Part shown: in pieces, positions 7,439-61,209 of the stretch
How positions within the stretch are numbered: position 1 is the stretch's first letter
How the letters are laid out: each line of letters begins with the position of its first letter
Sequence record: NZ_CP041325.1
Reading direction: 5' to 3' (one strand)
DNA: 64,000 nt
Source of the DNA: a plasmid
Notes under the pieces: model-generated
Database searches by the model: none
Told to the model about the DNA's origin: nothing
Seen by the model: only the letters and a program-made list of their open reading frames with translations
Made by a program: the position numbers and the translations under genes

Positions 7439-7487
7439 GAAATCATCCTCCGTTTCCTTCCATTTCTTCTCAGAGTTTCATTGATTT

Positions 7488-9547: not shown

Positions 9548-9608
9548 TATACAAGTATGCGCATATGCTAGCATGCGTGCATGCACGTATACATATATGC
9601 AAATATAC
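9548..9608. repeat. Iteron-like block 3
   Basis: Same unit family. Confidence 0.7.
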
Positions 9609-11150: not shown

Positions 11151-11275
11151 ACATATGCTCGTATGCACGTATGCTGACATGTACATATGCGCATATATCC
11201 GTATGCAAGCATGCACATATGCAAATATACGCATATGCAAGCATGCACATATGCTCATATGCATGTATATGAAAG
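11146..11275. repeat. Iteron block 4 (three or more copies of the 19-bp unit TGCAAGCATGCACATATGC)
   Basis: Direct repeats at 11147, 11204 and 11237. Confidence 0.75.
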
Positions 11276-11360
11276 AAGGAAATATATTTAATCGTTTGAA
11301 ACGTTGTCATATCAAGCTTCTTGTAAAATTAAGAAAATAGGAATTGCTTTTACCTAAAAA

Positions 11361-11721: not shown

Positions 11722-13093
11722 TTGGTCAGATCCAAAGAGCACTTATCGACCTCAGAAGGAGTTCGCGGCTATATTGTCACTTCCATGGAAACTCTCTTGG
11801 AGGATTCTTTTGGCATTTCTCACTGGAATCCTAATGTAGCGAACTACTTAAGGTATTCTGATAAAAAAAGACGGCACATCAAGGGATTGGAAGAGAAGAA
11901 CCTGCAACAAATCAACACCTTCGTCGTTGACATTGATTCCAAAAAGCAGCCCTATACAGAAATCCTGACTGCCGCCCTTGATCACAGCATCGGCATACCC
12001 ACTTTAGTCTTGGAAACACCAAAAGGTTTTCAGGCTTATTTTGTGTTGGAGAAACCGTTGTTCATCAGCAATCAAAACGATTATCGCGGTTTGAAAGTGG
12101 CTAAACGCATTTCAGAAAACATCAAACGCAGCTTGGCGGAAGTTTTGCAGGGAGTGGACATCTCCTGCAACGACTTCGGCTTTTTCCGCATGCCTCAAAA
12201 AAGACAACATCCGCTGGTTCTCAGAAGAAATGGTCTACGACTTCGGCAGTTTGATTGCTTGGTCCAAACGCCAGGATGATAACCGGGGTCGCGGGTTATT
12301 TGTGGTGCCTGGAAAAGAAGCGCCGCAGGATCCGACACAGTCCGAATGGTTCCGGGAATTGTTGGCGACTCGTCACGTAAAAGGGGGCGAGGGGCAGATT
12401 GGCCGGGACAATCTGATGTACACGATTGCCTTAGCCTGTTTTAGTGCCGGGAAGGGGAGAGGGGAGGCTCTCGACTTACTTGATGAATACAATTCAGGAC
12501 TTCATGCACCGATGCGTCATAACGAGGTGGAGAAAATCGTCAGAAGCGCATATAAAGGACGTTTCAAAGGCGCACATCAGGAATACATCCGTGAACTATT
12601 GGAAAGCTGGACGAACAAGAAGGATCTGGTCATCGAAAATTCTTTTGGTGGCTGGTACAAGTTCAAGAAAGAACGGAAGGACCGGAAGCGAAGCCATTAT
12701 GAAGAATGGGAAGAGGATCTGCTTGCCTATATCCAACAGGCCACTAGTTTGGAGCAACCAGTAAAATGGACCACACAGAAAGCAATCTGTGAAGAACTCG
12801 GAATGGCCAAAAGCACGTTCAACGAAGTGATCCGCAAATCCAATCGGATTCTGATCAAACGAAAAGGAAAAGGCTGCAGAGCACAGACCGGATTGACATC
12901 GGTGGCTGTGCTTCTTCAGTGTGCCCTTGCTTACAATCAAACACATCGTGCAGCATACTACGAAACGATCCGCTTGATGAACACAGAGCATGAAAACCAG
13001 GAAGCACTGCGAGAGCTTGATAACCTCCTGGACCTACACGCATTTGAAGTAAAACAGCAAAGGATGAATGGTAAAATTTTCAATTCTTCCTAA
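11722..13093 (+). CDS. Plasmid replication initiator with a PriCT_1 (primase C-terminal) domain, frameshifted
   Basis: N-terminal 'TFVVDIDSKK...GFQAYFVLEKP' replicase-like region. 'GRDNLMYTIALACFSAGKGRGEALDLLDEYNSG' matches PriCT_1. The two ORFs overlap at 12230..12279. Confidence 0.7.
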
Positions 13094-15605: not shown

Positions 15606-18093
15606 AGCCGGAAAGAAGGCGATACCCGGACGGAGCTGGGACTGGCGAATATTGCGAATGGCTGCCTGGAATCGACAGACCGGAAGCTCATCAAGGTATT
15701 GGAAGTCTCCTCAGTGAATTTGTCGTTGATGAATGAACTGGCAAAGAGAATGTGCTTTCAGCCTATCAGTCTTTTATCAACGACACCGGTGAGAAACAGA
15801 TCCAGTTGATGCAGGTAGCCCAGCCAATCAATCTCACAAACTACTTGATGTGGTTTAACGAACAGGTAGACCAGAACTCGTCCTATGCCAAACGGGTGCT
15901 GAAGCAAGGCTATTCCAACCAGATTGAACGGATTCAGAAGTCGAAGAACATGGTGACCCGGAAACGGTATTTGGTGATTTCCAAACCGATGACCCAATCG
16001 CCGAAAAGATTACATGAAGCTCGAGACGACGGCCAATATCTTGAAAGCGAAACTCGAACAGATGCTGTCGGGCTACGAGAAACTGGACGTTAAGATTTTG
16101 GAGAACGATGAATTGCTGAAGTTTTACTACGCTTGCATCGATTTCGAGAATGCACAGGCCCAAGGTGAAAACATTGTGCACAAGACCAATGCGAAGCTCG
16201 ATGTGGTAGTCGGAAAAAATACGGCCAAAGCGTTAGTGGACCAGTATAAAACACTGCTTAATGAACGATTTGAATAAGGAGGTGGCGTCATGCAATGGAT
16301 GAGCAGCCTGTTTCGTGCCAAACCGAAAGAAGAACCGACATTTGAAGAGACGGTGTTCAGCATGAATGAAACGTTGCTGACGGCGATTGCGCCGGATAAC
16401 CTAACGGAATACGATTCGTCGGTGCGCATCGGGGCCAACTATACCCGGACGCTGTTGATAGTCGATTACGATCCGATTCAGGACCAGAACAAAATCCAGC
16501 AAGTGACGGAGCTTCCGGAAAACGTCTCGATTGTGAACTACCTGCAGGAATACAACATCGGCGAGGTCCGGTCGCAGCTCGTTAAAAGCATCAAGCAAAA
16601 CCGGATGAAGATGAATACCCGATTTGCGGATGAACAGACGATCATCGATTCAGAAGGCCAGATTGAAAGTGCGTCGGAAATGCTGCGCAATCTCTCATAC
16701 CGGAACGATAAGATTTTCCTGTTTCATACCTTGATTCACCCCTGGTAGCCAGTTCGCAGGACGAACTGGACCAATTGACGACCACCGTCAAAAGCAAGTT
16801 TTCGAAAATCGGCATCATCCATAACCCGACAGACCGGGCAGTGGACGCCTTCCGTTCATTCCTTCCCCTCAATCAGAACAAAGTGGAGGAACTGACATAC
16901 AAAATGACCAACTCGGAAGCGATTTCGTATTTCTTCCCTTTCCATGAAAATGAAATGTTCTCGCAGACCGGATTGATCAAAGGGCGCAATATGACAACCG
17001 GCAATGTGGTCATCGTCGATGATACGACCTTGCTCAACCGGCATGAATTCGTCATCGGCATTTCCGGAATCGGGAAATCGACGTACTTGTTTGCCAACAT
17101 GACGAACAAGCATATGCTGGGCCGGAAAATCATTACCGTAGATCCGAAAGGGGAATTCGGCCGGAATTACGCGGACCTTGGCGGTGCCTGGGTCAAATTC
17201 CAGCTAAAAGGCGGAAATCGGATCAACCCGATGGATTTGCCGAAAATCAGTGAGAAGGTGCAGCGGGAAGAGGCCGAGCTCGGCAATATCCTGCTGACGA
17301 AAATCTCTAATCTCTTGGTCATGTTCAAGCTGATGTACAACTCCATGAATGAATTGCAGGAAGATATTCTGAGCCGGTATATCCAAAAAGTCTACGAAGA
17401 AAAAAGGCATCGATGAAACTACGGACATCAACCAACTGACGGCGAACGATTATCCGGTTCTTGAAGATCTGTACCGATTGATTGAACGCGATAAAAAAGA
17501 CGATCCGCCTTTGTACGAGCGTATCCGCGATTTTCACACGACTCTTGAAACATATGTATACGGCATCTACTCGGAGCTCTTTAACGGCGCCACAAACGTG
17601 AATATCGCCAATGAATTGGTTTGTTATGACCTAAAAGAGATGAGCAACAACGAAAAAATTCAGCGGATTCTTTTTTTACAACATTTTATCTCACACGACT
17701 TACGAAATTATGAGCGGGGACCGGGAACCCAGCGAAATTTTCATTGATGAAGCGCACGTCATCGCCGATCCGAAAGTGCCGAAAGCGATGGAGTTCATCT
17801 ATTTCATGATGAAAGTGCTCCGGTCGTTCAACTGCGGCATTACAACGGCATCCCAATCAGTGGAGGATTTCCTGTCCGCCCGCGATGAGAACCGGAACTA
17901 CGGGAAAGCGATCATCACCCAGTCGGTGCAACGCCTGTACTTACCGATGAGTGAGGAAGAACTGAAGTACCTGGAAGAGGAACTGGGCAACACGTTCTCA
18001 AAAGAGGAACGATCCACGTTGATTCTGAAGGACGGAAAGAAGAAAAGAGCAGGCCGGCAAAGGCATCTTCTATACCGGTTCCAAGAAAATTAA
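15603..18093 (+). CDS. VirB4-like conjugative ATPase (TcpF/ConE/Orf16 family), interrupted by at least 5 frameshifts
   Basis: Pieces 15603-15809, 15752..16093, 16014..16277, 16290..16748, 16775..17416, 17478..17747 and 17710..18093. Walker A 'GISGIGKST', Walker B '[12 protein letters not shown]'. Confidence 0.7.
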
Positions 18094-21904: not shown

Positions 21905-22975
21905 ATGTTGCAGATGGTGATTCGCACGATTGCTAATAAGGTCGGAACGATTGAAGTAAATGGCAATTCATTTTATTTTCTTCAGCCACTCTCTACCTTC
22001 AACACGGATCAAATGGAACGGATCCAACAGGCTTATGAACGGCGGATGGCTTCCTTAAAAGAAGAAACGCATTATTTAGTCGCAAAAAGCCTGACATTCC
22101 AGTCAGGGCAGGTTCAATTCGAATATGATTTGAGCGGATTAAAGGCTTATGATTACTTGAAGTCCCTTTATTTCGAAGATAAGCTACCTTACTACTTGTC
22201 ATTGGTACGTATTGCGCAAAATATGGAGGTCAACGTCCTTTGGCAAAAGGAAAACTTTGTGGTGGATGTGGAAGAGCAAGTACTTAAAGCGGCAGTTCTG
22301 GAAAACGAAGAGTTGAAACTGTATGACTCAAAAGACCGGGTAACTGCTGTCAAAGAATTGATTATCGTGTCGCTGACCAGTTTGAATCAAGTATTGGGGC
22401 GGCCGAAAAGAAGCGATTTTTTCGAACAGGATGAAGAAGTGATCCGTTTTGCTGAAATGGTCTATCTCCGTCTATCTACATTAGAGGAATTAGAATCTTT
22501 TATTTCTCAGGTCCACGTTGAAATTCAGGAACGGAAGCGGTTAGAAGAAGAGGAACGTGAAAAACTTATAGCCAATAATAAACACTTTGCTTTTACAAGT
22601 CTAAAACTTAACAAGAAACTTAATTCTCCAGGTAAAGATAAGGAGCATCTTCCTTACTTACAAGGCAAGCAAAAGAATAAGGGAAATAAAGCAGCTACTT
22701 CTAAGGAGAGCAATATCCGCTTCCTAGCGGGCGTTGGGGGTATATTGATTGTCGCAGTTCTCTTGAATGTCCTCTTAACCAATGCAAATGAAAATGCAGA
22801 AGCTAAAGATGCTGGGAAAGAAGAAGTGAAACAGGAGATAAACCTTGAAGAGACATACCGTCAAGGCCTGCTAGGAGATGAAACAACGGTCATTAAAACC
22901 CTGGAAACCGTAGGGTATGATTCTTTAAAAAAAGAAGAAAAAAGAAGTCTTAGAGGTATTGTATGTGAGAAATAG
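21905..22975 (+). CDS. EssB/YukC-like (type VII secretion pseudokinase-like) membrane protein
   Basis: 'LKSLYFEDKLPYYLSLVRIAQN' and 'ENFVVDVEEQ' resemble YukC motifs. Single TM 'FLAGVGGILIVAVLLNVLL'. Confidence 0.45.
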   Translation: MLQMVIRTIANKVGTIEVNGNSFYFLQPLSTFNTDQMERIQQAYERRMASLKEETHYLVAKSLTFQSGQVQFEYDLSGLKAYDYLKSLYFEDKLPYYLSLVRIAQNMEVNVLWQKENFVVDVEEQVLKAAVLENEELKLYDSKDRVTAVKELIIVSLTSLNQVLGRPKRSDFFEQDEEVIRFAEMVYLRLSTLEELESFISQVHVEIQERKRLEEEEREKLIANNKHFAFTSLKLNKKLNSPGKDKEHLPYLQGKQKNKGNKAATSKESNIRFLAGVGGILIVAVLLNVLLTNANENAEAKDAGKEEVKQEINLEETYRQGLLGDETTVIKTLETVGYDSLKKEEKRSLRGIVCEK

Positions 22976-25140: not shown

Positions 25141-27202
25141 ATGGTGCTATACAATAATTTATTTCTATTTTATTTAAAACAAGTGATTAAAAATCCCTTA
25201 TATATCGGAACGTTGCTTTTTATGGTATTCATGTTGCTCGTACGTATTCTTATTCGAGTCAATGAACCGTTTGATTATTGGAATTACGGGAGTCTGGTAG
25301 GCGAGATGATGATCGTTATACAAGCAGCCATGTTATTGATAATTGTCTACTTCTATAAATTATTTTCAGATGAATTCCGATTTGGAGCCGCTAAACTCTT
25401 TCCGGGATTTTTCAAAGTTACTTTGCTAAAGATATCTACTTTATTGACTGTTCATTCTTTCGTATTGGCCTTTTTTGTCGGCAGCCAAATTCTTCTAGTG
25501 ACGACTTACTTTCATTTATCCGATATCCCTTTTTCAAGTTTCTATAACCAAACCGCGATATACATAATTGTCTATTGGTATTTGCCTTTAGTGCTTGCTT
25601 TTACAATTGGTATTCTTGCAGCGCTTCTGTTTGGAAAAAATAAGATGGCGCTAGTTTTCATGATTCTGTTGTGGATTGCAGTTGGACCGATGAATACGAC
25701 GTTTTTCTCTCAATTATTTCAGCAATATTCATTCACTGATATAGAGAGTCTCTTTTATATCGGGCCATTAAGCAACGAAACACCTTTTAATGATTTAATT
25801 GGATATAACGTGACTCTTTCGGCTTTTTTTCAAGGTTCTTTTCTGGATTTTTTCGCTTCTCGGATTAGTTGTGTTGGTTCTAATGAAAACAGCACGTGCA
25901 GTGCGGGAAAAAGGCATCTTATTGGCCCTGGTTCTCCTCTTGGTAATCTGTAATGGGTTGATTTTCCCTTATATATTCACCGATGGAAAAGCCGCATTCA
26001 ATTTTGCTGACCAAGAGTCGGAGATCCTATTTTATAAAAACGGCCCCAAAAAGATTTCGTTCACACAAACGCAATATGAAGTTAAAGCCTATGACATTCG
26101 TTTGAAAACAGAAGGGCAAATACGCATTGAAACTGAACTCGCCCTTGCTAATATCCAAACGGGAATTTTGGGTTTCGTCTTCTACCATAACTTCGATTTG
26201 GAGAAAATTATAGATGAACAAGGCAAATCTCTTCCCTTTATCCAACAAGGGGATTTCCTGATGGTGCAGCGAGCATCTGAATTGCCGGAAGAGAAGCTCA
26301 CATTTACCTACAAGCTGAACGACTCAACTTTGTTGCCTGTTAGTGAAAAGTATTTGTTTCTGCCTAACTCAGTTAGCTGGCTTCCCACAAAAGCAAATCA
26401 CGCACCTTTCGCTTTTAACCAGATCATCGAAGAAGGGGTAAATATCTCCTCTGTTCAAGGCGAAGAAGCGGTTCAATATGCCTTAACTGTTGAAGGGGAT
26501 CTCCCCATTTATACGAATTTGCCTTCTAGCGGAAAAAACTTCTACAGCGGAGAAGTAGTGGGAGGAGTCACTCTGCTCGCAGGTATGCTGATTGAAAGGG
26601 AAATAGGCGGTAAAACGATTGTATATCCGAACTCTTGGCCAGATCCTTCAAAGGATTGGAAGGCCTATGAAGAAGTTCTGACCAACGTACATGCCGAGCT
26701 TAATGAAATGTTTGGGCTTAAGAAGCCACTACCTGATCAGATTATCTTTTTAAGTTTTAAGAGGGATGCTTATACGAGCTACCAAAGCACAAACCATCTG
26801 CTCTATATCAGCGGTTCCCATTTCAGCCTCAGTTCTCAGCTGAATGAGATTCCAAGTATCTATATAAACGCTTATTTGTGGAACTCTATACAAGGCAATT
26901 TACTAGACCTGGAACAAGTCCTTGTATTCAATGAACTGCTTGCCGGATACCTTCACGGAGAAATAGACATTAACTCGCCGATTTCCTATACAGTCAATGG
27001 AATACCGCTGTATTTGGGATTTGAGAAGAACGATAAGGAAACCCAGGAAATCATTAGTCAGTTCTATAAAGAATTTTATGATTTGGAAAAAGAGGAGCAA
27101 AGAGCCTTTCTTGTTGTATGGTACAAAAAGATGAATCAGTTAACAGAAGGTTGGCCAGAAGCAAAACAGCTCTTGAAGGAGTTTGAGGAGGGCAGAATAT
27201 GA
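25141..27202 (+). CDS. Large membrane protein (8+ TM N-terminal domain plus extracytoplasmic domain), frameshifted
   Basis: ORFs 25141..25953 and 25871..27202 overlap. First gene of the ABC operon, divergent from the RNPP regulator. Confidence 0.5.
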
Positions 27203-30532: not shown

Positions 30533-31627
30533 TTAAACTTCCTCCTTTACAAGCACTAATTCTTCAACTGGCTGGTATGGCGCGCTGTATCCAAAATATT
30601 CAGGGCCTGCGACCTCAATGCCTTTTGGTGTGCGCCATTTCGGATCGCACGGCATACCGATAACGAGGCAGCGTGCGCCATAACGAAGGCCTTCGGTCGT
30701 AATCGGCATACCGGTTTCTGCATCAAGCACAGCAATCAAATCTGGCGTTACACATACGACTTGGCCGTCCACTTCCGCGAGCAAGTGCTCGTTTTGGAAA
30801 TGAAGTTTGCAGGTCTTTCCAGTATTTGAACCGATGCCTTCGATTGAAGCGGTTCCTTTTGCAAAACCATCCTGCGTTTTTCGATCGATGTCTGTTACTT
30901 TTCCTTGGAACAGCTGATGGCCGTTCGTCAATTCAAGAATTTCATCAATTGGATGTTTGCTATTCTTTAATGCTGTCCGGATTCTGGCACCGATTTTCTC
31001 TTCAAGCGACAGGATGTGATGGATTGAAGATTTTTTCATTGTCTTTCCATCCATTTGATAGATGGCATTCATGACAGAACCGCCCATCTCGATCGTTGCT
31101 TTCCGCGCAATGCGTTCAGCCCACACACTGTCAATGGTATTGAGCAGTAAGCTATTGCCTTTTTCATCAGATATGACCATCGGAGTAGCAGAAACACCTT
31201 CCAAGTGGAAAGTAACCATCTGAAGTTCCGGGAAAGCCCGTCCCATACCATCTGCATCAATCACCGGAAGCCCAAGTCTTGCAGCTAGCGCGAGTGGCAG
31301 CATTGAGTTCACACCGCCTGCTTCAATTGGCATGGTAGCGTAAATTTTTTTGCCAAGGTACTCCTCAAGCGCTTTAAACGCAGCTACAGCTTCATCACCA
31401 TTTGGAATTTTTTCAACCATGACAGTCGGCGCACCCATCATCGCGGAAGGAACAACCAAGGCATCATCCGGTACTTCCTCAGGATCGAGTAGACGGATGG
31501 GGCCGTATTCTTCGACAGCCTGCAGGGCCATCAATTTCCCGATATACGGATCACCTCCACCCCCAGTACCAAGAAGTGCTGCACCGATTGCGATATTTTC
31601 AATTTCTTCTTTCCCAATTAATCTCAT
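30533..31627 (-). CDS. DUF917-family protein (partner of hydantoinase-like proteins)
   Basis: 'AIGAALLGTGGGGDP' motif. Abutting gene in the same operon. Confidence 0.7.
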   Translation of the reverse strand: MRLIGKEEIENIAIGAALLGTGGGGDPYIGKLMALQAVEEYGPIRLLDPEEVPDDALVVPSAMMGAPTVMVEKIPNGDEAVAAFKALEEYLGKKIYATMPIEAGGVNSMLPLALAARLGLPVIDADGMGRAFPELQMVTFHLEGVSATPMVISDEKGNSLLLNTIDSVWAERIARKATIEMGGSVMNAIYQMDGKTMKKSSIHHILSLEEKIGARIRTALKNSKHPIDEILELTNGHQLFQGKVTDIDRKTQDGFAKGTASIEGIGSNTGKTCKLHFQNEHLLAEVDGQVVCVTPDLIAVLDAETGMPITTEGLRYGARCLVIGMPCDPKWRTPKGIEVAGPEYFGYSAPYQPVEELVLVKEEV

Positions 31628-45364: not shown

Positions 45365-45378
45365 AGAACAAGTGTTCT
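45365..45378. promoter_or_regulatory. LexA (Cheo) box AGAACAAGTGTTCT
   Basis: Perfect GAAC-N4-GTTC palindrome ~20 bp upstream of the polymerase ATG. Confidence 0.7.
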
Positions 45379-45398
45379 TTTCGGAAGGGGTGAAGGAT

Positions 45399-46655
45399 AT
45401 GGAGAGCCGGGAAGGGGGGGAACGCACGATTGCTTGCCTCGACATGCGCAGTTTTTATGCGAGTTGTGCGGCGGTCGAGGCCGGGATGGATCCGCTGGAA
45501 GCGTATATCGCCGTCGTCGGCAACCAGGAGCGCAAGGGCAGCGTTGTGCTTGCGGCCTCCCCGCGGATGAAGCAGGAGTTCGGGGTCCGTACCGGCACCC
45601 GGCTGTTTGAAATCCCGGGCGACCCGCGGATCCGGCTCCTCGAGCCGAAGATGGGCTTCTTCCTGAAGGTGTCGATGGCCATCACGGACCTATTGGCGGA
45701 GTTTGTGCCGAAGGACTGCATCCACGTCTACAGCGTCGACGAGAGCTTCATCGACTTCACCCGTGTGGAGAGCTTCTGGGGCGGGGCAGAGGCGCTCATT
45801 CGCCACATCCAGGACGCGCTTGTCCGCCAATTCGGGCTGCCGTCTGCGGTCGGGGTGGGGCCGAACATGCTGCTGGCGAAGCTCGCACTCGACCTAGAGG
45901 CGAAGAAGAGCGGCTATGCCGAGTGGACGTATACCGACGTGCCGAAGAAGCTGTGGCCGGTCGCGCCCTTGAGCAAGATGTGGGGCATCGGGTCCCGCAC
46001 TGAACAGACCTTGAATGGCATGGGCATCTTCTCGGTCGGCGACTTAGCCTGCACGGATGTCGCAAAATTGGAAGGTCGCTTCGGCATCATGGGACACCAG
46101 CTCTATCAACATGCCAATGGCATCGACCTGTCGGAGCTCGGCGCGCCGCTCATCGAAGGGCAGGTCAGCTACGGCAAGGGGCAGATCCTCTACCGGGACT
46201 ATACCGAAGTGGAAGACATCCTGACGATCATCCTGGAGATGTGCGAGGACGTCGCGATGCGCGCGCGGCAGGCCGGACGGGCGGGGCGCACGGTCCAGCT
46301 GGGGGTCGGCTACAGCAAGACAGCGTTCGGCGGCGGCTTCTCCCGCTCGCGTTCAATCGAGGAGGCGACGAACGAGACGCTGGCGCTCTACCGGGTCTGC
46401 CAGGAACTGTTCCGGGAACATTACCTCGGCAAACCGGTCCGCCAGATTTCGCTGTCCCTCAGCAACCTGGAGGAAGAGTCATCGATGCAGCTGAGCCTGT
46501 TCGAGGCCCAGAAATGGGAGAACCGCAAGCTCGGGGCGGCGATGGACCAGATCCGGAACCGGTACGGCTATTCGGCGATCTACCGGGCGGTGTCCGGGAC
46601 CGAAGCTGGAACGGCCATTGCCCGGACACGCTTGATTGGCGGGCATCAGAAATAA
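45399..46655 (+). CDS. Y-family DNA polymerase (DinB/UmuC-like translesion polymerase)
   Basis: 'IACLDMRSFYASCAA...VYSVDESFIDFT' is the Y-family palm. The ORF-track start at 45372 overlaps the LexA box, so the Met at 45399 is preferred. ~62% GC. Confidence 0.85.
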   Translation: MESREGGERTIACLDMRSFYASCAAVEAGMDPLEAYIAVVGNQERKGSVVLAASPRMKQEFGVRTGTRLFEIPGDPRIRLLEPKMGFFLKVSMAITDLLAEFVPKDCIHVYSVDESFIDFTRVESFWGGAEALIRHIQDALVRQFGLPSAVGVGPNMLLAKLALDLEAKKSGYAEWTYTDVPKKLWPVAPLSKMWGIGSRTEQTLNGMGIFSVGDLACTDVAKLEGRFGIMGHQLYQHANGIDLSELGAPLIEGQVSYGKGQILYRDYTEVEDILTIILEMCEDVAMRARQAGRAGRTVQLGVGYSKTAFGGGFSRSRSIEEATNETLALYRVCQELFREHYLGKPVRQISLSLSNLEEESSMQLSLFEAQKWENRKLGAAMDQIRNRYGYSAIYRAVSGTEAGTAIARTRLIGGHQK

Positions 46656-47329: not shown

Positions 47330-47770
47330 GATTACCTTCTGAAGGTTCTGAAGGTAATGATAAACTGAAATACCGCACCTGCAAGGTAACAAGGCAAAGA
47401 ATTCCCGGCTATTTGTGGTCCAAGCTGCTCGAAGTCCGGGAAAAGCAGGCCATCCATCGGCTCTTGAAAAAGGATGCCCACTTACAAGAACTTCAATTGT
47501 TCATCAGCGAGTTCTAGCAGCTCATGCGACTACAGCGAGAATGCCTGCATTGAATACGAAGAAAAAAAGCGGAATCAAGGAACTGAAGCAATTTGGACGC
47601 TACTTGCAATCAGATTGGCAAGCTGTTGAAAAATTCCCTGATTCATCGCTGGAGCAATGGTTTGGTAGAAGGTCATGTAAATCGCATTAAAGTGATCAAA
47701 TGGTAAAGGTATGGCCGGGCTAACTTTAATCTGCTTCGCCTTAAAATTTTATACCGTTCCAATTAATACT
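47330..47770 (+). mobile_element. Degenerate C-terminal remnant of an ISL3-family transposase
   Basis: Across three frames: 'GIKELKQFGRYLQS', 'LLKNSLIHRWSNGLVEGHVNRIKVIKW*', 'RYGRANFNLLRLKIL'. This is the ISL3 C-terminal signature with an in-frame stop. No N-terminal transposase portion is present. Confidence 0.6.
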
Positions 47771-48182
47771 TTCCTAAAAAACAAGCTAACCATTCACCAG
47801 CTGCCGACAATCATCTTCACCAAATTGCGGAAGAACCAATAATAAACCGGTGTTAACAAATATTATTTTCAATTTTAAAAAATAAGTTTAATACATCGAG
47901 TGCTATATATTTTTAGGAACCTAAACAACCGTGTTTAAGTTCCTTTTTTGCTGTTATTTAGCATTTGGTTATAGAAATTAGAAATAATAATTACCTTCTT
48001 TGATCTATCGAATGGTGCAAATTCACTTTAAATAATTTTCTTAATTTTTTCTCAAAACCTCAAAAATAAATCTCTTTTCGATGTGAATACTTGTATAATT
48101 TAGGTAATAATAAATATTTTTAAAGACTCATAAATTAGATGAATTAATTTAATTAAAATACTATTAAATATATAGGGGGTTA

Positions 48183-49787
48183 ATGATGGAGAGCATAAGA
48201 ATAAGAAATTTAAGAAGTTTAAAAGACACAGGGGAGGTTGAACTCAAACCGTTAACTTTATTAGTGGGGAAAAATAGCTCAGGAAAAAGCACCTTTTTAA
48301 GAACCTTCCCATTATTCAAGCAAACTATAGAAACTAAAACTAATGAACCGATTCTTTGGTATAGCAGTAGATACGTTGATTTTGGAAGTTTTCATGAAAG
48401 TCTTAATAAGATAACAGCTAAAGAAGAGGAGGAAAAGAAAAATATTAGTTTTGATTTCAAATTTAGTATCCCAAGTTCAGTTGTACAAATGGGAACTGTT
48501 GATATATTAAGCTACTATTCTTTAAGACCAAGTAGAATGAGTAGAATTTATAATTATAATTACAGCAATAGTAACCGTAAAACACCATTTAAAATAAGCA
48601 TTGAAACGAATCAAAAGTCATTATCTAAATTTACTATTTCTATAGAAGATCATTTACTTGAAATGACTTTAAAAGAAGATGAAAAATTTAGTCAAGTAGG
48701 ACTTAAAATAAACGGAGTACCTATTTCAGAAACTTCTAGTTTAGTAGCTCGATACGCTAAAGATTACTCGCAGTTATTACCTTTAATCTTTAGTGACAAA
48801 AGTAATTCTTCTGAAAATAATTATTTTAGAGATGAGTTATTTAAAATTTTTCAAAGCTTGGCTTATACTTCTACGAGAAGAAATACGATTTCAGAGTTTA
48901 TTGAGGACATAAAGTTTGGTGATAAATCTGAAATTATTAATAATATAAAAAGTCAAGATACTACAGCTAATGTTCTATTAGAAAATTTAAAAGCATTAGA
49001 GTCCGACAATGAGGTAATGCAACAAATTATAATAAATTACATAGGTATGAATATAAATCCTATAATAACAATGTGTAATAATTATATAGAACAGTATTTC
49101 TCTTCAATTAATTACATCGCTCCTATTAGAGCGAGTGCCGAAAGGTATTACAGAATTCAAGGTCTTTCTGTAGATGATATCGATCCACAGGGCGAGAATA
49201 TACCAATGATTTTCAATAATATGAGTGATATTGAAAAAGAAAATTATAACCATTGGTTATTTGGTAATTTTGGATTTCAAATATCAGCAAGCCCTACGGA
49301 AGGACATTCATCAATAAGAATAAAATATAGTAATGGAGAAGAGGTTAACTTAGCAGATACAGGCTTCGGGTATTCTCAGATTCTCCCAATTACTTTAGTT
49401 CTATGGCAGACTTCAAAACAAGAACGAAAAGACATATTTGCATATAGTGGATTATATAAAGCTGATTACAATTTTTTTAATTTAGTGATTGAGCAGCCTG
49501 AACTACATTTGCATCCAGCTATTCAGGCTAAATTAATCGATGCATTTATAAAGATAATTATGCTATGTAAAGAAAAGAGTATTGATATTAAAATTATTAT
49601 CGAAACACATAGTGAAACAATGATTAATAGAATTGGATATATAATAGCAAAAAATATAGAGGAATTTACCGAGGATTTAGTTAAGGTAATTATTTTTGAA
49701 AATGATGAGGTCTTTGATACTAAATTAAATGTAAGTACATATTCGGAAAACGGGTATCTAAAAAAATGGCCTTTAGGTTTTTTTTGA
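48183..49787 (+). CDS. ABC/AAA_21-type ATPase, AriA-like (PARIS-like system component)
   Basis: N-terminal 'IRIRNLRSLKDTGEVELKPLTLLVGKNSSGKST'. C-terminal 'IEQPELHLHPAIQAKLIDAF...IIETHSETMI' (Walker B, D-loop, H-loop). Confidence 0.6.
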   Translation: MMESIRIRNLRSLKDTGEVELKPLTLLVGKNSSGKSTFLRTFPLFKQTIETKTNEPILWYSSRYVDFGSFHESLNKITAKEEEEKKNISFDFKFSIPSSVVQMGTVDILSYYSLRPSRMSRIYNYNYSNSNRKTPFKISIETNQKSLSKFTISIEDHLLEMTLKEDEKFSQVGLKINGVPISETSSLVARYAKDYSQLLPLIFSDKSNSSENNYFRDELFKIFQSLAYTSTRRNTISEFIEDIKFGDKSEIINNIKSQDTTANVLLENLKALESDNEVMQQIIINYIGMNINPIITMCNNYIEQYFSSINYIAPIRASAERYYRIQGLSVDDIDPQGENIPMIFNNMSDIEKENYNHWLFGNFGFQISASPTEGHSSIRIKYSNGEEVNLADTGFGYSQILPITLVLWQTSKQERKDIFAYSGLYKADYNFFNLVIEQPELHLHPAIQAKLIDAFIKIIMLCKEKSIDIKIIIETHSETMINRIGYIIAKNIEEFTEDLVKVIIFENDEVFDTKLNVSTYSENGYLKKWPLGFF

Positions 49788-49802
49788 GCCGGAGGGAATT
49801 TA

Positions 49803-51006
49803 ATGTTATTAAAGATTGATAGTTCATTAGTTGATTATTTAAAAGATAATTCCTCAAAGCCCAATTTAATAAATAACGAAGTTCAGGCTTTAAATAATCT
49901 CTCTATAGCACACAGGGACAAAAAACATATTTTATTTGGATCTTTAGATGTAGTAGAATTTTTAAAAGATTTTAAACCCTTAGATGATACTGCGCTAGGA
50001 ATTTTTAGCAATTTATTTAAAAAGTTTACTTTCATGGGAATATATGAAGAAATGTTTGATAATCAAATATTAATTAAAAGTAGAGAACATAAGTTTTTAA
50101 AGAAGTTTGTTAAAGAGAAAGTAATATTTGAAATTCCTATAACTGATTTTTTTAGATATAGAGAGTATTAGTAGAACTGCACTAATTGGAGAAGACAGTA
50201 CTGACTGTGAATTTTATGAAGGATTAGCAAAACAGTATATTACAGAAAATTATGGGATTTCTGCTATTAATTTAAACTTTCACCATGTGAATGGAGGGGG
50301 AGTAAATACTTGGAAATCCTTGCGTTATTACAGTGAAAATAAAAAAATCTCACTTACTATAACTGATAGTGATAAGCGCTACCCAACTGGTAACGTAGGA
50401 GAGACTTTAAGAAAATTGAGGACTGAATATAATAAACATAAAAATAATACGATAACAGATTTAGTGGAGTTAAAAGTAAGAGAAAAAGAAAATTTAATTC
50501 CTCCTTCAGTTTATTTGTATTGCTGCAACAGTTCTGATAAAAGTAGATTGGAAAACTTCATGTTATTAGAGGATTCTAATAAGCATTCCGAAAAATTATT
50601 TTATTTAGATTATAAAGAAGGGTTAAACGTTAAGAGCTATAAACGAGATTCTCAATTGCAAGGATATATAGAAGAAATGGTGAAAGATTTTCCGCACTTA
50701 GCCACTTGTAGTTTGGAAGATATAGATTCCTTATCTGACGATTATCGTATTATTGAAGGTATAAGTATGAATGTTTCAGATTATTTTAGTGTAGGAGTTT
50801 TTTACGAAGGTTTAGAAAAAGAATTAGAAGATAAATTAATGATAGAAAAAATACCAGCAGAAGTTATAGATGATTTGCGTAATAGTATAGACAAAAAAAA
50901 TAAAATGTTTAGACATATGCCAGAAAGCTTTCAAGTTCATTTGGAGGAAATTTGCAAAAAGCTTATTGATTGGGGATGTGCTAATAGTTCTTTTATTGCG
51001 ACCTAA
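49803..51006 (+). CDS. DUF4435/Toprim-like (OLD-family nuclease-like) protein, AriB-like; one gene split by a T7-run indel at ~50165
   Basis: Removing one T from 'gattttttta' joins the 122-aa and 239-aa ORFs. The junction then reads 'ALIGEDSTDCEFYEGL' (Toprim Glu motif), followed by 'LTITDSDKRYP' (DxD motif). Confidence 0.5.
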
Positions 51007-51364: not shown

Positions 51365-54300
51365 TTATCGTAAAAGTATGGTGTGAGTTACTTTATCTAT
51401 GATTTGCTGTGAAATTTCTCGATCGAAATCTGCTATCTCTGGTAATATAGCATTAATATTTGCTAAATCTATTTCTTCAAAGTTCGATATTGCTTCAGCA
51501 ATTATAGTTGATTTCTTGAGTAAAAATAATCTCAATGAATTGGGGTCTTCATTTATTAAGTGGAAAATAAGAATATGCAGAGCTTGCCATTCTAATCGAT
51601 CTTTTGAGTAAGAATCTCTATGCATAGGAATATCAAAATCATTTTCTATATAATACTTAACTAGCGAAGGAGAAAAAGCGAACTGATAAAGGTTTATTTT
51701 CTCAAATTTCTCTTTATTACTGTAAAGAAAATTATCAATTATTCGAACGTGCTTTTTATCAAGATACAAAAAGAGGAACTCAAGTATTTCACTATGAAAG
51801 CTCGCCCAAACATTATGCTCATCAAATTTAGTTTTTATTCGGGTTAAATCTATAGCTTTAATAAGCTCAGAGTATTTACCTGAATCAAACTTTCTCAGAA
51901 TCTTATAGAAACTAGATAAGTTGTGCCAACTGCGAAAGGGAACTGTTACTAATTCTTCAGCCAATTGCTTGGGTTCAATAAAACTAATGATTTTTTCACC
52001 AATGACTCTTTGATCTTTTTTAATATAATCTCTTTTTTCGCTTAAAGAGTTGAATCCCATTACTATTGCTAAAAATTTGAAATCTAGCATATGCCAAGCG
52101 TTAATTGAATGTTGTTTAAATGCATTGCGGAAATTGTCAGACATCACGTGAAATAATTTAATGCCATAAAGTCTGTCGTAGTTAAAAATGTTCCCAATGA
52201 AATCAACTAAGTCTTCGAAATCTAACTGGTTATTTTCCAATAAAAGTAGTTCTGTTTCAATCTGGTTTTTGTCTAAAAGCTTGAAAAATTCCTTTGCTCT
52301 TTCAATTGATAAAAGAAGACCTAACCTAGAAATAAAATAACTCCAGTGATATAAATCTTCTTTCTTTAAATTAGAAAATCTATTAGCAATTTCAGTTATA
52401 TTTAAGTTGTTACCAAAATCTTTTGCTTTAATTCTATCCGAATTATACATATCATTTATTATAGTGCCCAATGAATAAGCCGTTATACTATTTACATTTT
52501 CAATTTCTTTATGAATTGTTGAAGAAAAATGATATATATCAAAATACTCGGTTTTACTAAACTTTGTAAAAGTATTGGCGAAGTATAAAGCATGAGTAGT
52601 GAGAGTTTTTTTCTTCTGACGACAAGCTTTCTTCAATGATATGGTAAACTTCGTCTTTCGAAATAATATAAGGCATTCTAAAATGCAGTTCACTAGTGAA
52701 AATTGTATTCATAAACCATACTTTTCCTAAAAGCGGATTATTTAGAGATATCATTTCATTGTGTACTATTTGCTCATATTTTTTTCTATTTTCTGTGTCA
52801 TTATCGAATATGAACTTCAATTGTCTTTTAGCTGCTTCATAGTGAATCATTCTAAGGAAGAAACCATCAATTAACCTTTTCTTTCGTAGTGCTTTTAAAT
52901 TTTTATTTAGCCATTCTTCATCTTCAGAAAAGTATTCTTTTACGTTCTGTATTAACCAATTTTCATTTACTGTATTATCTTTGGTTATTATCTGTTTTAG
53001 AGCCAGTAAAAAAATTAATCTTTGTGAGTTGTCTAGATCTTTTGATTTAAAGTAGTTATCTTTAGTAGTTTTCCACCCGCCTCTAATTACATAATTAAAG
53101 GTCCAAAGATTGTCCTCTTTCGAGGCGGCATCTATTCTTTGATCGAACGATTCTTGCAGAAAGTAATTTCCTAAGTCTCCATCTATTTTTGAAATAATAT
53201 GTGAAACTGTTTTTTCATTTTTTCTGTAAAATTCACTAATGCAAGCGATATTCTCATTATTAGAAATTGAAACTGTAGCGGAATCAACTTCTATATCTTC
53301 AGTAACTGTCAAAATGATCTTTTGATAATTACTGCTTTTTTCTTGTAAGATTTGCAAAATCGAACTGGGTAGAATATGTCCATCATCAATGATATATATT
53401 GCTTTAGGATTGCTGGGTAAAGAAAAATTATCGATATCTGTAAAATCATTGGTTTTGAAACGTAAAACTTCATATCCATGTTTTAAAAAATGAAAAGCGA
53501 TTTGGTAACAAGAAATGGATTTACCAGATCCGGGTTTTCCTTGAAGAATAACAAAGTTATTCAACTCTAAAACTTTAATAGCTTTTTTGAACTTGGGGCA
53601 TTTCGGGACAAACGCTCACGTCTTGAGGGGTAAGTTTGTACCCTAAAACGGCTCTTCCAATACTATCATTTTGATTTTTAAAATTTAAGTACTCCCATTT
53701 ATTATAATTATTCTCGTCTATCAAATTTTCAACTAATTCCTCAAAAAATTCCGACGCCGATAAATTAATCACTCTTTCATCAGTTGAAAATGGGGAAACT
53801 CTATAGACTTTCCATTTATCTTCTAAAGGCGAAATCAATTCTTCTACAATTTTTGCATCGCTTTCTGAATAGCCAACGATAACTAGAGTTCTAGGTCTTT
53901 CCATTGCTAGTAGATTAATATGTTTTTGTTCTTCGTCACTTATATTTCCTGGAGAGTTTGGAAGTACCCACTCAGAATTTAAATTTAAGACATCTCCGTG
54001 TGGTTTGATCAAATTTATTTTACTGTCGTTTATTCGGGTACCATATAATTCAGACCATGACATTTCTAATAAGCTATCCCAATTAAAAGAGACAATTAGC
54101 TCAAAAAATTTTCATGAACTAATTTAGCTATATTATTATGTATACGAGGGGCAACGGTTATTTTACTGTTAACCTTGCTAAACTTGCTTTTAAATAAACT
54201 TACCGCATCTTCATTCTGTTCAATATATGAAAACGCCCTTTTGATTTTTTACAAAATCTTCTCCTATTCTACTCTTTGTACTTCCAATGCCTTTAAACTT

Positions 54301-54465
54301 CTGATCGATACTAGGAAAAGAACTTACTACCTCCCAAACAATAGGAGCAAGCTGGTTACCTAGTGGCATTCCAGGTTCAAAGGAAACTCCCGCCCCAATA
54401 ACTACGACAGCATTATTAACTCTTATTTCATTAATTATTGAGGTTAAATTATTAACAGACTTCAT
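51365..54465 (-). CDS. SIR2-like NADase domain fused to a NACHT/STAND-like P-loop NTPase and an α-helical C-terminal domain (~1030 aa after correcting homopolymer frameshifts); bNACHT/Avs5-like candidate
   Basis: SIR2 motifs: 'VVVIGAGVSFEPGMPLGNQL' (54220..54465), 'IVSFNWDSLLE', 'LIKPHGD' and 'LVIVGYSESD' (53575..54063). NTPase: 'ILQGKPGSGKS', 'IYIIDDGHIL', 'KIILTVTED' (52557..53564). Helical 442-aa tail (51365..52693). Junctions lie at T6, A6 and A7 runs. A single nt change at each gives a continuous ORF. Confidence 0.55.
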
Positions 54466-54563
54466 CTCACTTGCTCCTTTTTTTAGTGATACTTTAATTA
54501 TTCCATATAGGGAAAAATAATAAAAACGTTATAAATTAAACTGTTTTATAGGAGTTTCTTCTA

Positions 54564-55182
54564 TTATAAAGGAGTTGCTGTCTCTGCTTCGATTTCTCTC
54601 ACTAATTTATAAAAACTAGTTTTTTTAACTCCAGTTTCTTGCATGGCTTCAACTGCTGTTAATTCTCCAGATTTCCATTTTCTATAAACCTCTTTAAATT
54701 CTTCTGAAACAAGAACAGGAGTCCTGCCAAACTGAATGCCGTTTTTCAACGCTAAGTCGATTCCTTCGCGTTGCCGTTTTCGTATGCGTTCCCGTTCTTC
54801 TTCTGCCATCCAGGAAAGAATCTGCAAAACCAAATCTGCAATGAATGTTCCCATACTATCTTTATACTGCGTCGTATCGAGTAACGGCATATCCAGCACC
54901 ACGATATCCGCTTCGATTTTTTTTCGTCAGGTCATTCCATTCCTGGAGGATCTCTTCTTTGTTCCGGCCAAACCGATCCAGCGAGTGGATATATAAAATG
55001 TCGCCTTTCCGGATAATCCGTTTGAGCAGCTGATAGTTCGCTCGCTCGAAATTCTTACCACTTTGCTTGTCCAAATAAATATCCCGTTCAGTGATGCCCA
55101 TTTTTCTCATTGCTTCCAATTGACGGCCTTCGTTTTGATCTTTGCTGCTGACACGTATGTAGCCAAATTTGCGATGTTCCAT
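54564..55182 (-). CDS. Serine recombinase (resolvase/invertase family), one A8-run frameshift near 54895
   Basis: N-terminal 'GYIRVSSKDQNEGRQL...LYIHSLDRFGRN' catalytic domain. C-terminal HTH 'TAVEAMQETGVKKTSFYKLVRE'. Confidence 0.8.
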
Positions 55183-55219
55183 AATTCACCTCGAAAACGA
55201 TTGTTTCCTCTCATTATAC

Positions 55220-55355
55220 CTGAAAAGCGTTCGTAAAAGTGTCTGCAATTTCGCGAACGTTCGTAAAGTCATTTGACACGTTTACGAACGCTGTTTTAGC
55301 CGTTTAGCCCTTTTCAAAGCGTTCGTAAAAGTGTACTTTTACGAACGCTTTAAAA
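55220..55355. promoter_or_regulatory. res-like recombinase binding region: five copies of GCGTTCGTAAA(A)GT in direct and inverted orientation
   Basis: 55224 AAAGCGTTCGTAAAAGTG; 55253 GCGAACGTTCGTAAAGTC; 55278 (inverted) CACGTTTACGAACGCTG; 55316 CAAAGCGTTCGTAAAAGTG; 55336 (inverted) CTTTTACGAACGCTTT. Immediately 5' of the recombinase gene. Confidence 0.6.
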
Positions 55356-55665
55356 AGTATAGTGGCATGTATAAAAAGGGAATAAAGGAGAATTCGGCGA
55401 ATTACCTGTTTAAGGAAATAAACCAATTGTTAAAGAAGACAACTAGGGGCGAGGGGAGTGATTCGTTTTATTCGATATGAAGAGGATCAAATGTATTTAG
55501 AATTCACAGAAATAGAACCGGCTGTAAGTTTAACGGAATTTGTAAAATATCTATAAGATGAAGAAATCACAAGACGAAAGGATGCCTTGGCGATGGCTTT
55601 CAAAAAGCAAAAAACAGAAAGAAATCCAGGCAGTCTTCCGAACTTTGCTCGCCTGAAATCATGAA

Positions 55666-56094
55666 TTGAAAAATTTGCCGAAAGGATGTGATGATATGAC
55701 GATTAACGTATTTATCAGCTATGACTACACCAGCGATAAAGAGTATGCATCCTTATTAAAAGCTTGGGCTGAAAACGATGCCGAACATTTTAAGAACATT
55801 AATTTTATTGATGGTTCTAGCGATTTTTCAAGAGAATCTACTAAAGTGAACGCCTTCAAAAATTCAATTTCAAGAAGAATGAATGCGTGTGATAAAATAC
55901 TTGTTTTAGTTGGAAAAGAAACCTACAAAAGTGATTGGTGTAAATGGGAGATCAAGAAAGCTGAAGAACTTGAGCTTGATTTTGCAGCAGTTAACATTGA
56001 ACATGCAAATGCATCTCCCATCAGCTTGTACGGAAAAGGAGTAAAAAGGGCGAGAAGTTTTACTGAAGCAGCCATTGAAAGCGTCTTAACGTAA
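55666..56094 (+). CDS. TIR-domain protein (ThsB-like/DUF1863-like), ~130 aa
   Basis: 'INVFISYDYTSDKEY' βA motif and 'KSDWCKWEIKKAEE' (SxWCxxE catalytic-Glu box). Probable start at the Met of MTINVF (55696). Confidence 0.65.
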   Translation: MKNLPKGCDDMTINVFISYDYTSDKEYASLLKAWAENDAEHFKNINFIDGSSDFSRESTKVNAFKNSISRRMNACDKILVLVGKETYKSDWCKWEIKKAEELELDFAAVNIEHANASPISLYGKGVKRARSFTEAAIESVLT

Positions 56095-56260
56095 GATCAA
56101 ATCAACATGTGGATGTTTATAAGCTTTTACCTTTTCGAGGGTTTAACTTAAGCTAGGCAGTTTCTTTTGTAGTTAGAATTTTAATAGGTTTACATATCTT
56201 CACTTATAGGAAGCAGCAACCTAAATTAATCTTCAATTGGCGTTGCTACAGTTACATGTA

Positions 56261-56296
56261 AAACAGACAGCCGACTTGCTCAGGCTGTCTGTTTTT
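56261..56296 (+). terminator. Rho-independent terminator
   Basis: CAGACAGCC-N10-GGCTGTCTG followed by TTTTTG. Confidence 0.7.
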
Positions 56297-56583
56297 GTAA
56301 CTCTAGAGATAGACTTTGTGGCTCAGTTTTAATGATTACTGGACAAACTGCTTACCGATTCGCACCTATAATAATGAAGTGTATTGAAAATAATAGTTAA
56401 TTATTTAAAAATTTAATTATTTAATAGAAAAAGTTTTATTTCTTGCTATACTAAAAGCTAAAAGAAGAGATACATGGGGCAGAGAAACGGGGAGTGAGAA
56501 TGCTTTTGAAATCAAAACACTTTAAAGAAATTATTAATCTACAAGTATTTTTAATACATCCTTTTCAAGGGAGTGAAGAAGTA

Positions 56584-59736: not shown

Positions 59737-61209
59737 CTATTCGGATTCAATTACAAATTCAATTGTCTCCCGGTCGGAAATCGTCGGAAGTTGATAGGAT
59801 TGCTGGTAGTTTTCATGGCCTTTGCCGGTGATTACAACCCAATCGCCCGTCTTGCTTTCGTTGATTGCTTTTTGAATGGCGACTGTCCGATCCGGAATTA
59901 TGCTTCCCTTTTCATTACCGTAAGTCTCATTTAGTCGTTTTAAGTCGTCCACCATCTCGATTTGCGACACCGTGTTCAGGTCATCCAATGTCAAATGTAC
60001 CGGTCACTCCATTCTGCGCTTATCGACAGCATGGCGCTTCGCTTGCTAGGGTCCCGGTCCCCACGAAAGCCAAAAACATGGATAATCCGTTTGGCGCCCT
60101 GTAATTTTACGGTTTCCAAGCAGTAAGAAACGGCATCCGGTGTATGGGCATAGTCCACCACGACGGTTGAGCCATTGGTTAGTTTGGAAACTTCAAAACG
60201 TCCTTCGACCCCCCTTGAAATGTGGAACGGAATCCAAAAGCTTTTCTTTGGGAATCCCCAGAAGCCGTGAAGTTCCATACGCCATCAAGGTGTTGTACAT
60301 ATTGTGCATGCCGTTCATCGCTGAGTCCATTTGGTACGTTTCGTTCCTTTCCTCCACCAGCATCGTGGAGGTCGTTGGGGTAAAGTAGACAACGCGCAGA
60401 TCGCAGTCAGAGGACCTGCCAATCGCATACACCGATTTCCCTTCCCTTTGCAGGGTTTCCGTAAGCTTTCGCCCCCACACATTATCCGCATTCACCACAG
60501 CGGTTCCGTTCGCTTTCAACTGATGGAACATCAAAAGCTTCGTCTGGAAGTACTCCGCCATGGAGCCGTGGTAATCCAGGTGCTCCGGATGAAGATTGGT
60601 AAACAAGCTGTAATCAAATGTAATACCTGCCAAACGGTGTTGGGCCAATCCGTGAGAAGAGACCTCCATGATGATGACCTCATCGCGGCTGAGGGATAAT
60701 AGCTTGTGCAAAGCCAGCGAACTGGGCGTGGTGTTGGCGCTTTTCGTCTTCTGACCATTGATCACATTTTGGATGGTCCCGATGACAGCACAAGTCATCC
60801 CGTTGTTTTCTAGAAAATGCTGCAGCATGTAACTTGTGGTCGTTTTCCCATTGGTTCCTGTTATGCCAATCATTACTTTCTCTTTGGACGGATGCCCATA
60901 GAAATTCCTCGCCATTATGCCAAGGGCTTTGCGGCTATTCTCCACTTGAAGATAAGGGATGGATAGGCCGGTGATTTCCTGTTCTCCCACGACCACTAAA
61001 GTGCCTTTTTCAATTGCTTGTTCAATATACTGATGGCCATCACTTTTAAAGCCTGCAATGGCGACAAAGACGAATCCTGCCTCGACATCTCTGGAATTAT
61101 CGGCAATGCCTTGGATATCTAACTCTAACGTGCGGGAATTCAACCGATTAATCAAATCAATTTCCTGCAAAAGTTGCCTTATTTTCATTGATTGGGTAAC
61201 CTCTCTCAA
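59737..61209 (-). CDS. murE: UDP-N-acetylmuramoyl-tripeptide ligase MurE, two frameshifts
   Basis: 'IGITGTNGKTTT' P-loop, 'DNVWG', and a C-terminal 'VVVDYAHTPDA...ITGKGHE' spread over three frames. Confidence 0.8.

Follow-up and report, generated by a model that had tools for sequence, protein, structure and literature searches.

A probable res/resolvase module of a Planococcus-type conjugative plasmid, with a site I that may also serve as an exchange junction

We analyzed a 64,000-nucleotide stretch of plasmid DNA (sequence record NZ_CP041325.1), referred to here as the window, and concentrated on a 0.8-kb module at positions 54545-55357. The module consists of a gene for a small serine recombinase (resolvase) on the minus strand (54564-55182; 205 amino acids after removal of one A) and, upstream of its start codon, a compact set of repeats arranged as in a res site (55228-55347). 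A SIR2-like/STAND NTPase gene follows downstream on the recombinase strand, and a ThsB-type TIR gene lies on the other side and reads away; these are the neighbors that had been named in an earlier reading of the locus made from the letters alone (the sequence-only reading).

The recombinase gene and its res site

The 10-mer CGTTCGTAAA was present in exactly five exact copies in the whole window, all of them inside 55228-55347 and 46 to 167 bp upstream of the ATG at 55182 (plus-strand starts at 55228, 55258, and 55320; minus-strand starts at 55281 and 55338). The sequence-only reading had described such a cluster, three copies direct and two inverted, 5′ of a serine recombinase and had likened it to a three-subsite res. 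Both statements held up, and a sixth, degenerate half-site, CGTTCGCGAA, on the minus strand at 55250-55259 completes three inverted pairs. The resulting dyads span 55228-55259 (gap of 12 bp, 2 mismatches), 55258-55290 (gap of 13 bp, exact), and 55320-55347 (gap of 8 bp, exact). Allowed up to 2 mismatches, the 14-mer GCGTTCGTAAAAGT gave 4 matches in the window, where 0.36 were expected. When the window was scanned for paired inverted half-sites with up to 5 mismatches, four other pairs were found, each with no fewer than 5 mismatches; shuffled windows, used as the control, gave 0 to 4 pairs at this level.

Site III (55228-55259) consists of CGTTCGTAAA, 12 bp, and the degenerate inner half-site TTCGCGAACG; it covers the −35 region and overlaps site II by 2 bp. 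Site II (55258-55290) has exact inverted half-sites 13 bp apart and was conserved in 95 copies across loci, among the matches listed in the genome comparison described below. Between sites II and I lies a spacer (55291-55319) with three T-tracts phased at ~10 bp. In its consensus, built from 61 copies among the matches listed, the T frequency was 0.77 to 0.97 in three 4-nt tracts 10 bp apart, and the positions between the tracts were variable; the phased tracts may form an intrinsic bend that stands in for the HU-induced bend of the Sin system. Site I (55320-55347), the predicted crossover site, reads CGTTCGTAAA-AGTGTACT-TTTACGAACG with a central GT at 55333-55334, and its dyad is part of a palindrome with 23-nt arms that extends to 55310-55357. 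Three subsites of inverted half-sites at unequal spacings, a resolvase gene adjacent to them, and a crossover site distal to that gene amount to a res-type layout.

As assembled, the recombinase gene is split into two open reading frames (ORFs), 54862-55182 for the N-terminal 106 amino acids and 54564-54902 for the C-terminal 112 amino acids, a split that the sequence-only reading overlooked. The +1 frameshift lies in a run of eight A residues on the minus strand (54917-54924; T8 on the plus strand), which has a single extra base in alignment with three relatives. Relatives carry an intact 618-bp gene; the protein is 88 to 94% identical to the three aligned relatives and, beyond the extra base, shows no indels and no stops. 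Six frame breaks were located in the recombinase, SIR2/STAND, and MurE-like genes (the last is split in three), and every one of them fell at a homopolymer of at least 6 bases. Because all six share this setting, the recombinase frame break is probably a homopolymer sequencing error and the gene probably intact in reality. Split genes were also noted elsewhere in the window, at 51365-54465, 59737-61209, 49803-51006, 2782-3760, 11722-13093, and 16290-17416. Since homopolymer-length errors are suggested for this assembly, pseudogene calls in the window are unsafe.

The recombinase matched the Pfam family Resolvase (PF00239) with an E value of 5e-26 and 92 bits, against a cutoff of 23.3. Among solved structures, Sin was the best match (2r0q; E value of 7e-25, 91 bits), followed by the gamma-delta (74 bits) and Tn3 resolvases (about 1e-19), with the invertases far behind (about 1e-11; 47 bits for Gin/Hin). 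The sequence-only reading had called the product a resolvase-type serine recombinase, and these matches substantiate that call. The YxRVS serine motif is present (FGYIRVSS aligns to gamma-delta FGYARVST and Sin IGYARVSS), DRFGRN aligned opposite DRLGRD/DRLGRN of the solved resolvases, and the C-terminal helix-turn-helix aligned as well, the gamma-delta alignment reaching residue 181 of 183. No NCBIfam equivalog attained its cutoff with the repaired recombinase, and PADLOC returned no match for it.

A −10-like TATAAT, recognized by eye and by its conservation, marks a candidate recombinase promoter on the minus strand at 55213-55218, 9 bp downstream of site III, and the sequence holds a putative ribosome binding site (RBS), GAGGTG, at 55187-55192 on the same strand. 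The −10 element was kept as GGTATAAT or GGTAGAAT in 8 of 8 aligned relatives. In this eight-sequence alignment the half-sites, the GGTATAAT −10 just downstream of site III, and the RBS were conserved, and the spacers and everything beyond site I were not.

Relatives of the module and the flanks of site I

The module was found at 82 to 89% identity on plasmids of Planococcus and Sporosarcina, on the Staphylococcus aureus cfr plasmid pSA8589, and on cfr plasmids of Proteus, Providencia, Pasteurella, and E. coli. Plasmids of Peribacillus and Priestia carried it at about 70% identity, and the best match in the genome collection was 88.9% identical. In every case the shared sequence ran from ~10 to 20 bp beyond the stop codon up to the outer limit of site I, and no further.

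A genome scan, with one genome per species and two exact half-sites 8 to 13 bp apart, returned at least 120 stretches; exact matches to site I or II defined the loci, each of which was taken as a fixed 8-kb chunk. The geometry of sites I and II was kept in at least 81 genome loci. Among the matches listed, to which the fractions and medians given for relatives below also refer, nearly all stretches came from Planococcus, Planomicrobium, Peribacillus, and related genera, and the DNA beside site III in 81 loci with sites I and II was a recombinase gene in 22, a decayed remnant in 2, and unrelated DNA in 57 (orphan res). Decayed recombinase genes beside an intact res were seen in loci L039 and L045. 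The contigs that bear gene-linked res copies were small (median, 63 kb) and those with orphan copies large (median, 316 kb; 21 orphan copies were on contigs of 500 kb or more), and the outer half-site of site III had a mean of 0.19 mismatches in gene-linked copies versus 1.14 in orphan copies. Multiple res and recombinase copies were common in Planococcaceae genomes. Three complete chromosomes had one res at 51 to 60% of the length and another within 3 to 6% of the record start or end. In P. salinarum, a pair of res copies separated by 6.2 kb belongs to a perfect 6,168-bp tandem duplication at a contig end (loci L114 and L092; Scaffold10_1, 90603-102938), probably a circular element or an assembly artifact, and was not used as evidence.

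The DNA joined to site I varied between relatives. Seven Planococcaceae genomes (L011, L027, L030, L043, L055, L105, and L117) carried an orphan res at one shared chromosomal locus, where genes for an ArsA-like ATPase, a zinc dehydrogenase, and a small membrane protein and then a terminator preceded res, and the DNA after site I was different in each. A single right flank, for its part, recurred at five res loci whose left contexts were of four kinds; one of these loci is a plasmid copy that has the recombinase gene.

Isolated copies of site I, termed site I′, had the center and right arm intact and a degenerate left arm (TGTYTG versus CGTTCG). They lay 0.45 to 6.5 kb from res, sometimes two in series, and 25 of 30 shared the orientation of res and were on its site I side. 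Each was preceded by a conserved 3′ module of ~100 nt, made up of GTTTACATATC, TTATCRGAAG, and then a terminator-like hairpin of variable sequence. The idea that the arrays are tandem res units was rejected: decayed sites II and III were sought upstream of the site I′ copies, and this different conserved module stood there instead. The inserts, with segment lengths of 0.45 to 6.5 kb, were bounded by a ~20-nt repeat equal to the site I center plus right arm, and those inspected contained no transposase. One sequence, Y, was found in three such settings: directly after a full site I in locus L036 (the empty site), after site I′ behind a 1,564-bp insert in L108 (91% identity over 393 bp, from the junction onward), and after site I′ behind an 823-bp insert in L052. 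The two inserts resembled each other only in their last ~115 bp. Recombination of a circular unit bearing site I′ with site I would produce this pattern.

In the arrays of relatives, small genes were followed by a 32-nt hairpin repeat, GAATGTAACTTA-N8-TAAGTTACATTC. All 70 copies, from 23 loci, were on the site I side of res, with equal amounts of DNA sampled on both sides. An ORF reading away from res, and stopping typically tens of nucleotides before the hairpin, was present in 47 of 58 short segments between hairpins. Array protein families recurred at different positions with different neighbors, and some were immunity-type or uncharacterized families (WapI, DUF3885, DUF5063, and LRR). Taken across these loci, the outer half of site I in this res family seems to be a junction for exchangeable units, and cassettes seem to be attached there.

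The window also holds a hairpin-punctuated gene array on the minus strand at 5864-7521, detached from res and 48 kb from it. It has three perfect hairpins (5995-6026, 6664-6695, and 7490-7521), where none is expected by chance, an array-end motif (5864-5874), and minus-strand genes that include those for a metallophosphoesterase and a DUF5063 protein. Its last 164 bp (5864-6027) match, in inverted orientation, the array end of the Planococcus maritimus plasmid pKRIBB-KS-1-2. That plasmid (locus L128) has one full res (22462-22584) and, at distances of ~4.3 and 8.2 kb from it, site I′ copies or modules in the same orientation (26873-26900 and 30666-30775), with four hairpins between res and the first site I′; this complete plasmid would be well suited as a model replicon.

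Directly after site I in the window lies the TIR cassette (55348-56324, plus strand), which comprises a leader with one or more small ORFs, the ThsB-type TIR ORF (55666-56094), a cassette 3′ module, and a decayed site I′. The TIR protein matched ThsB_TIR (PF08937; E value of 6e-19) and was called ThsB by PADLOC. Over the 276 bp after site I, the leader shared 77% identity with the right-hand flank of an orphan res from another Planococcus (L037). The stop codon of the TIR gene is followed by GTTTACATATC (56188-56198), TTATAGGAAG (56204-56213), a perfect terminator hairpin (56260-56295), a T-run, and AGATAGACTTT, with the decayed site I′ at about 56292-56324; eight other loci have site I′ modules to which this stretch aligned as far as the crossover center. 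GTTTACATATC occurs only twice in the window, here and at the end of the three-hairpin array (5864-5874). Judged by these alignments, the TIR gene is within a predicted unit of ~0.97 kb that starts at site I and ends with the 3′ module and the decayed site I′. The sequence-only reading had suggested that the whole defense island is a mobilizable or resolvable cassette; the suggestion survives for the TIR side but not for the island as a whole, which has no bounding res copies. A tblastn search of plasmids with the TIR protein returned homologues at 33 to 42% identity in Acinetobacter and Staphylococcus only, and none in a Planococcus res context.

Junctions of the same kind were found beside cfr, a gene for resistance to linezolid among other drugs. 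In pSA8589 (L130, 1450-1740) a short hypothetical gene and cfr come directly after a full site I. In pcfr-XZ03 of S. capitis (L131, 6335-8644), a ~39.5-kb conjugative staphylococcal cfr plasmid, the same segment of hypothetical gene plus cfr is preceded by a MerR-family gene and then by a site I′ together with its 3′ module. The same 41-nt match was present in about 30 staphylococcal or Mammaliicoccus plasmids (30 matching records were typed as conjugative), of which only pcfr-XZ03 was inspected. Because cfr lies on the cargo side of site I in the one plasmid and behind site I′ in the other, the DNA immediately around it looks like a fragment of a res-linked cassette array. A paper on these cfr plasmids describes the insertion sequence-bounded segment alone (PMC9769919).

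Predicted functions and competing explanations

We read the locus as the res/resolvase module of a Planococcus-type conjugative plasmid, with a site I that also acts as an exchange junction for outer DNA and with a recombinase frame break that most likely reflects a homopolymer error; we put the probability of this joint reading at roughly 0.7. The module is best read as serving plasmid multimer resolution and autoregulation. By analogy with Tn3/gamma-delta and Sin, dimers of the 205-amino-acid recombinase would bind the six CGTTCGTAAA half-sites as three inverted pairs. In a plasmid dimer, two directly repeated res copies would synapse through the accessory sites and the T-tract-bent spacer between sites II and I, and strand exchange at the central GT of site I would then give monomers. 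Site III covers the recombinase promoter, and recombinase bound there would repress its own gene. Res sites adjacent to resolvase genes resolve multimers of Gram-positive plasmids and are hotspots of recombination and insertion (PMC3276174, PMC2428073). Taken alone, the module would be a routine plasmid maintenance function, and the defense island would be neither invertible nor excisable by it.

The known systems Sin/res of staphylococcal plasmids, beta/six, and pAMbeta1 Res are alike in having a ~200-amino-acid serine recombinase beside its own res on Gram-positive plasmids, with no transposon and a presumed role in multimer resolution (PMC3276174). The res of Sin has two protein sites, of which site II is a direct repeat, and an HU/IHF-bent spacer between them (PMC2428073), whereas the window res has three inverted-repeat subsites, an exact inverted site II, a T-tract spacer, and an unrelated half-site sequence. 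With Tn3/gamma-delta the module shares three inverted-repeat subsites of unequal spacing, a 28-bp distal site I, a proximal site over the promoter, and a total length of ~120 bp, but it has no transposase and no terminal repeats, its sites II and III overlap by 2 bp, and its protein is nearer to Sin. Sites II and III of Tn3 are 34 and 25 bp long, versus 33 and 32 bp here. Of the Tn3-family comparison proposed in the sequence-only reading, the three-subsite layout stands, but spacings and overlap differ and the protein sides with Sin.

Several points weigh against the joint reading. The recombinase gene is broken in the sequence as assembled, and a scan for consensus sigma-70 promoters called none inside res, because the recombinase promoter has no good −35. 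Selection by exact matches and the use of fixed 8-kb chunks make the locus counts a biased sample. In wild-type form, the Tn3 and Sin resolvases show a strong preference for a pair of complete res sites, so that a reaction of res with a single site I′ would be atypical of the family. The hairpin arrays could be shuffled by homologous recombination or by another enzyme, and the distal site of the TIR cassette lacks a right arm, so that this unit is not mobile now.

The broken ORF could instead mean that the frameshift is real, the recombinase inactive, and res inert or served in trans or, in a variant of this explanation, that slippage between A7 and A8 works as an on/off switch. L039 and L045, with decayed recombinase genes beside an intact res, provide precedents, and the several res and recombinase copies in Planococcaceae genomes make action in trans plausible; nevertheless, the six breaks in three genes are all single-base changes at homopolymers, the signature of read errors, and the protein is otherwise undamaged in comparison with its three relatives. 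We therefore consider a dead relic unlikely. A Tn3-family cointegrate-resolution system or its remnant, a TnpR gene and res left by a transposon, would account for the Tn3-like layout with site I distal to the gene and site III over the promoter, and an ISL3 remnant in the island does speak of transposon traffic. However, Tn3-type tnpA genes were found at the site I side in 0 of 7 annotated relatives and are absent from the window, where the neighbors are the STAND NTPase and TIR genes. Transposase genes do lie on both sides of the module in L007, but the abutting one encodes 349 amino acids, far short of Tn3 TnpA. The module holds a conserved backbone position on a conjugative plasmid, and the limits of its homology are site I and the stop codon, not 38-bp terminal repeats. 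A Tn3 origin thus appears quite improbable.

The sequence-only reading had also raised the possibility that the orientation of a segment controls defense gene expression: the recombinase would flip DNA between inverted crossover sites and so switch the SIR2/STAND or TIR genes. Small serine recombinases do include invertases, and the genes on both sides read away from the site. The second, inverted copy of the motif that had been suggested as a check was sought, but the window contains one res only, and within these 64 kb no partner site was detected beyond chance level with the 14-mer, the 10-mer, paired half-sites at up to 5 mismatches, or the right arm plus center at up to 3 mismatches, although a partner could lie beyond the window. 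A three-subsite res is a resolvase layout, the bit scores of the protein place it with Sin and gamma-delta, well ahead of Gin/Hin, and the secondary sites in relatives, among the matches listed, were direct rather than inverted in 26 of 30. With no partner site in the window, a protein that groups with resolvases, and direct secondary sites, the inversion switch fails as an explanation, and we regard it as very improbable. The same slight weight goes to the view that the repeats form a pure operator array that regulates transcription of the recombinase gene and/or the TIR gene without recombination. That view is in keeping with the overlap of site III with the promoter region and with the known autorepression by resolvases, but the 57 complete orphan copies persist without a neighboring recombinase gene whose transcription they could control. 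Flanks are exchanged precisely at site I, and the inserts have a duplicated right arm plus center at their boundaries; such reassortment together with such boundaries is a recombination signature and not a regulatory one.

The res/resolvase reading admits a more tentative extension, to which we give somewhat less than an even chance: in Planococcaceae and their plasmids, res could serve as the platform on which gene cassettes dock, in a system that parallels the integron and is driven by a small serine resolvase. Circular units with an asymmetric site I′ behind a 3′ module would integrate at, and be excised from, the site I crossover, and polar arrays would be built in this way on plasmids and at chromosomal orphan res sites. 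We infer that the resolvase would be the enzyme behind exchange at site I. The cargo so far would include immunity-type genes, the ThsB-type TIR gene of the window, and the segment bringing cfr into staphylococci.

As in integrons, the relatives have a fixed platform site, a polar array of mostly single-gene units reading away from it, structured unit ends, and units in different orders. Unlike integrons, which use the tyrosine recombinase IntI with attI and attC, this system would use a serine recombinase, accessory sites form part of its platform, and many platforms lack a recombinase gene beside them; its cassette site is double-stranded and repeats the crossover site with one half degenerate, whereas attC acts as a folded single strand. 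The pdif modules of Acinetobacter likewise reuse a dimer-resolution site as the boundary of exchangeable plasmid modules, but they depend on the XerC/D tyrosine recombinases and on dif-like sites in alternating orientation, and the sites here are res-type and direct. To our knowledge, Gram-positive bacteria lack classical integrons. If the pattern holds, the res of a resolvase would be an attachment point for exchangeable cassettes and offer Gram-positive bacteria a new route for trading defense, immunity, and resistance genes; it would also provide a concrete origin for the DNA immediately around cfr in clinical staphylococci. Foreign DNA is known to gather at the res of Gram-positive plasmids through Tn552-type insertion (PMC3276174), but those inserts have transposase genes, terminal repeats of ~120 bp, and 6- to 10-bp duplications, unlike the inserts here with their ~20-nt boundary repeat derived from site I. 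A full-text literature search within one library returned no account of res-linked cassette arrays or orphan res sites in these bacteria, which is absence of evidence and no proof of novelty.

The replicon and neighboring genes

Plasmid genes in the window encode a MobQ-type relaxase, ParA, a primase-type Rep, a VirB4-like ATPase, an M23 peptidase, and a TrbL-like protein, and type IV secretion system genes are present. The window is collinear with the backbone of pKRIBB-KS-1-2 at 70 to 75% identity, and in that plasmid the recombinase/res module occupies the corresponding position, preceded by a ComEC-like gene and by accessory DNA with an NB-ARC gene. This conserved position on a collinear backbone argues that the module is a backbone function of a conjugative plasmid or of an integrated copy of one. 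The defense island of the sequence-only reading corresponds to a low-GC accessory region of the plasmid with an ISL3 transposase remnant at its left edge.

The SIR2-like/STAND NTPase gene (51365-54465, minus strand) lies outside the recombination module. In the assembly it is in at least four pieces and five frame segments, and four 1-base homopolymer edits restore a protein of 1,032 amino acids. The protein matched nSTAND3 with an E value of 5e-13 and SIR2_2 weakly, with an E value of 0.006; PADLOC gave no match for the repaired protein. An Rfam scan at gathering thresholds and a tRNA scan of the whole window returned nothing, with no tRNA-type integration target or known RNA.

An AAA_15/AAA_21 ATPase gene and its partner (48183-51006 in the window; 1-1775 in locus L096) are near the recombinase module in both replicons. 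In PADLOC the AAA_15 ATPase gave NsnB as its best match, followed by AriA. The partner, a single protein of 403 amino acids in Planococcus sp. 4-30 but divided into two in the window, matched no Pfam or PADLOC family; in Planococcus sp. 4-30 the pair stands near the module without a SIR2/STAND gene. The ISL3-family remnant (47400-47830), a C-terminal portion of the transposase identified by eye, reads ...NGLVEGHVNRIKVIKW.. RYGRANFNLLRLKILY... and marks the left edge of the low-GC island at 48 to 56 kb. Four clusters of degenerate ATGCRYATAYGC-type repeats flank parA (9879-10730), at 8566-8620, 9240-9295, 9548-9610, and about 11150-11290, and are candidate partition sites or iterons. A gene for a Y-family (DinB-like) polymerase (45372-46655), beside the ComEC-like gene, has 59% G+C in a replicon of ~40% G+C and so looks like a recent gain from a high-GC donor.

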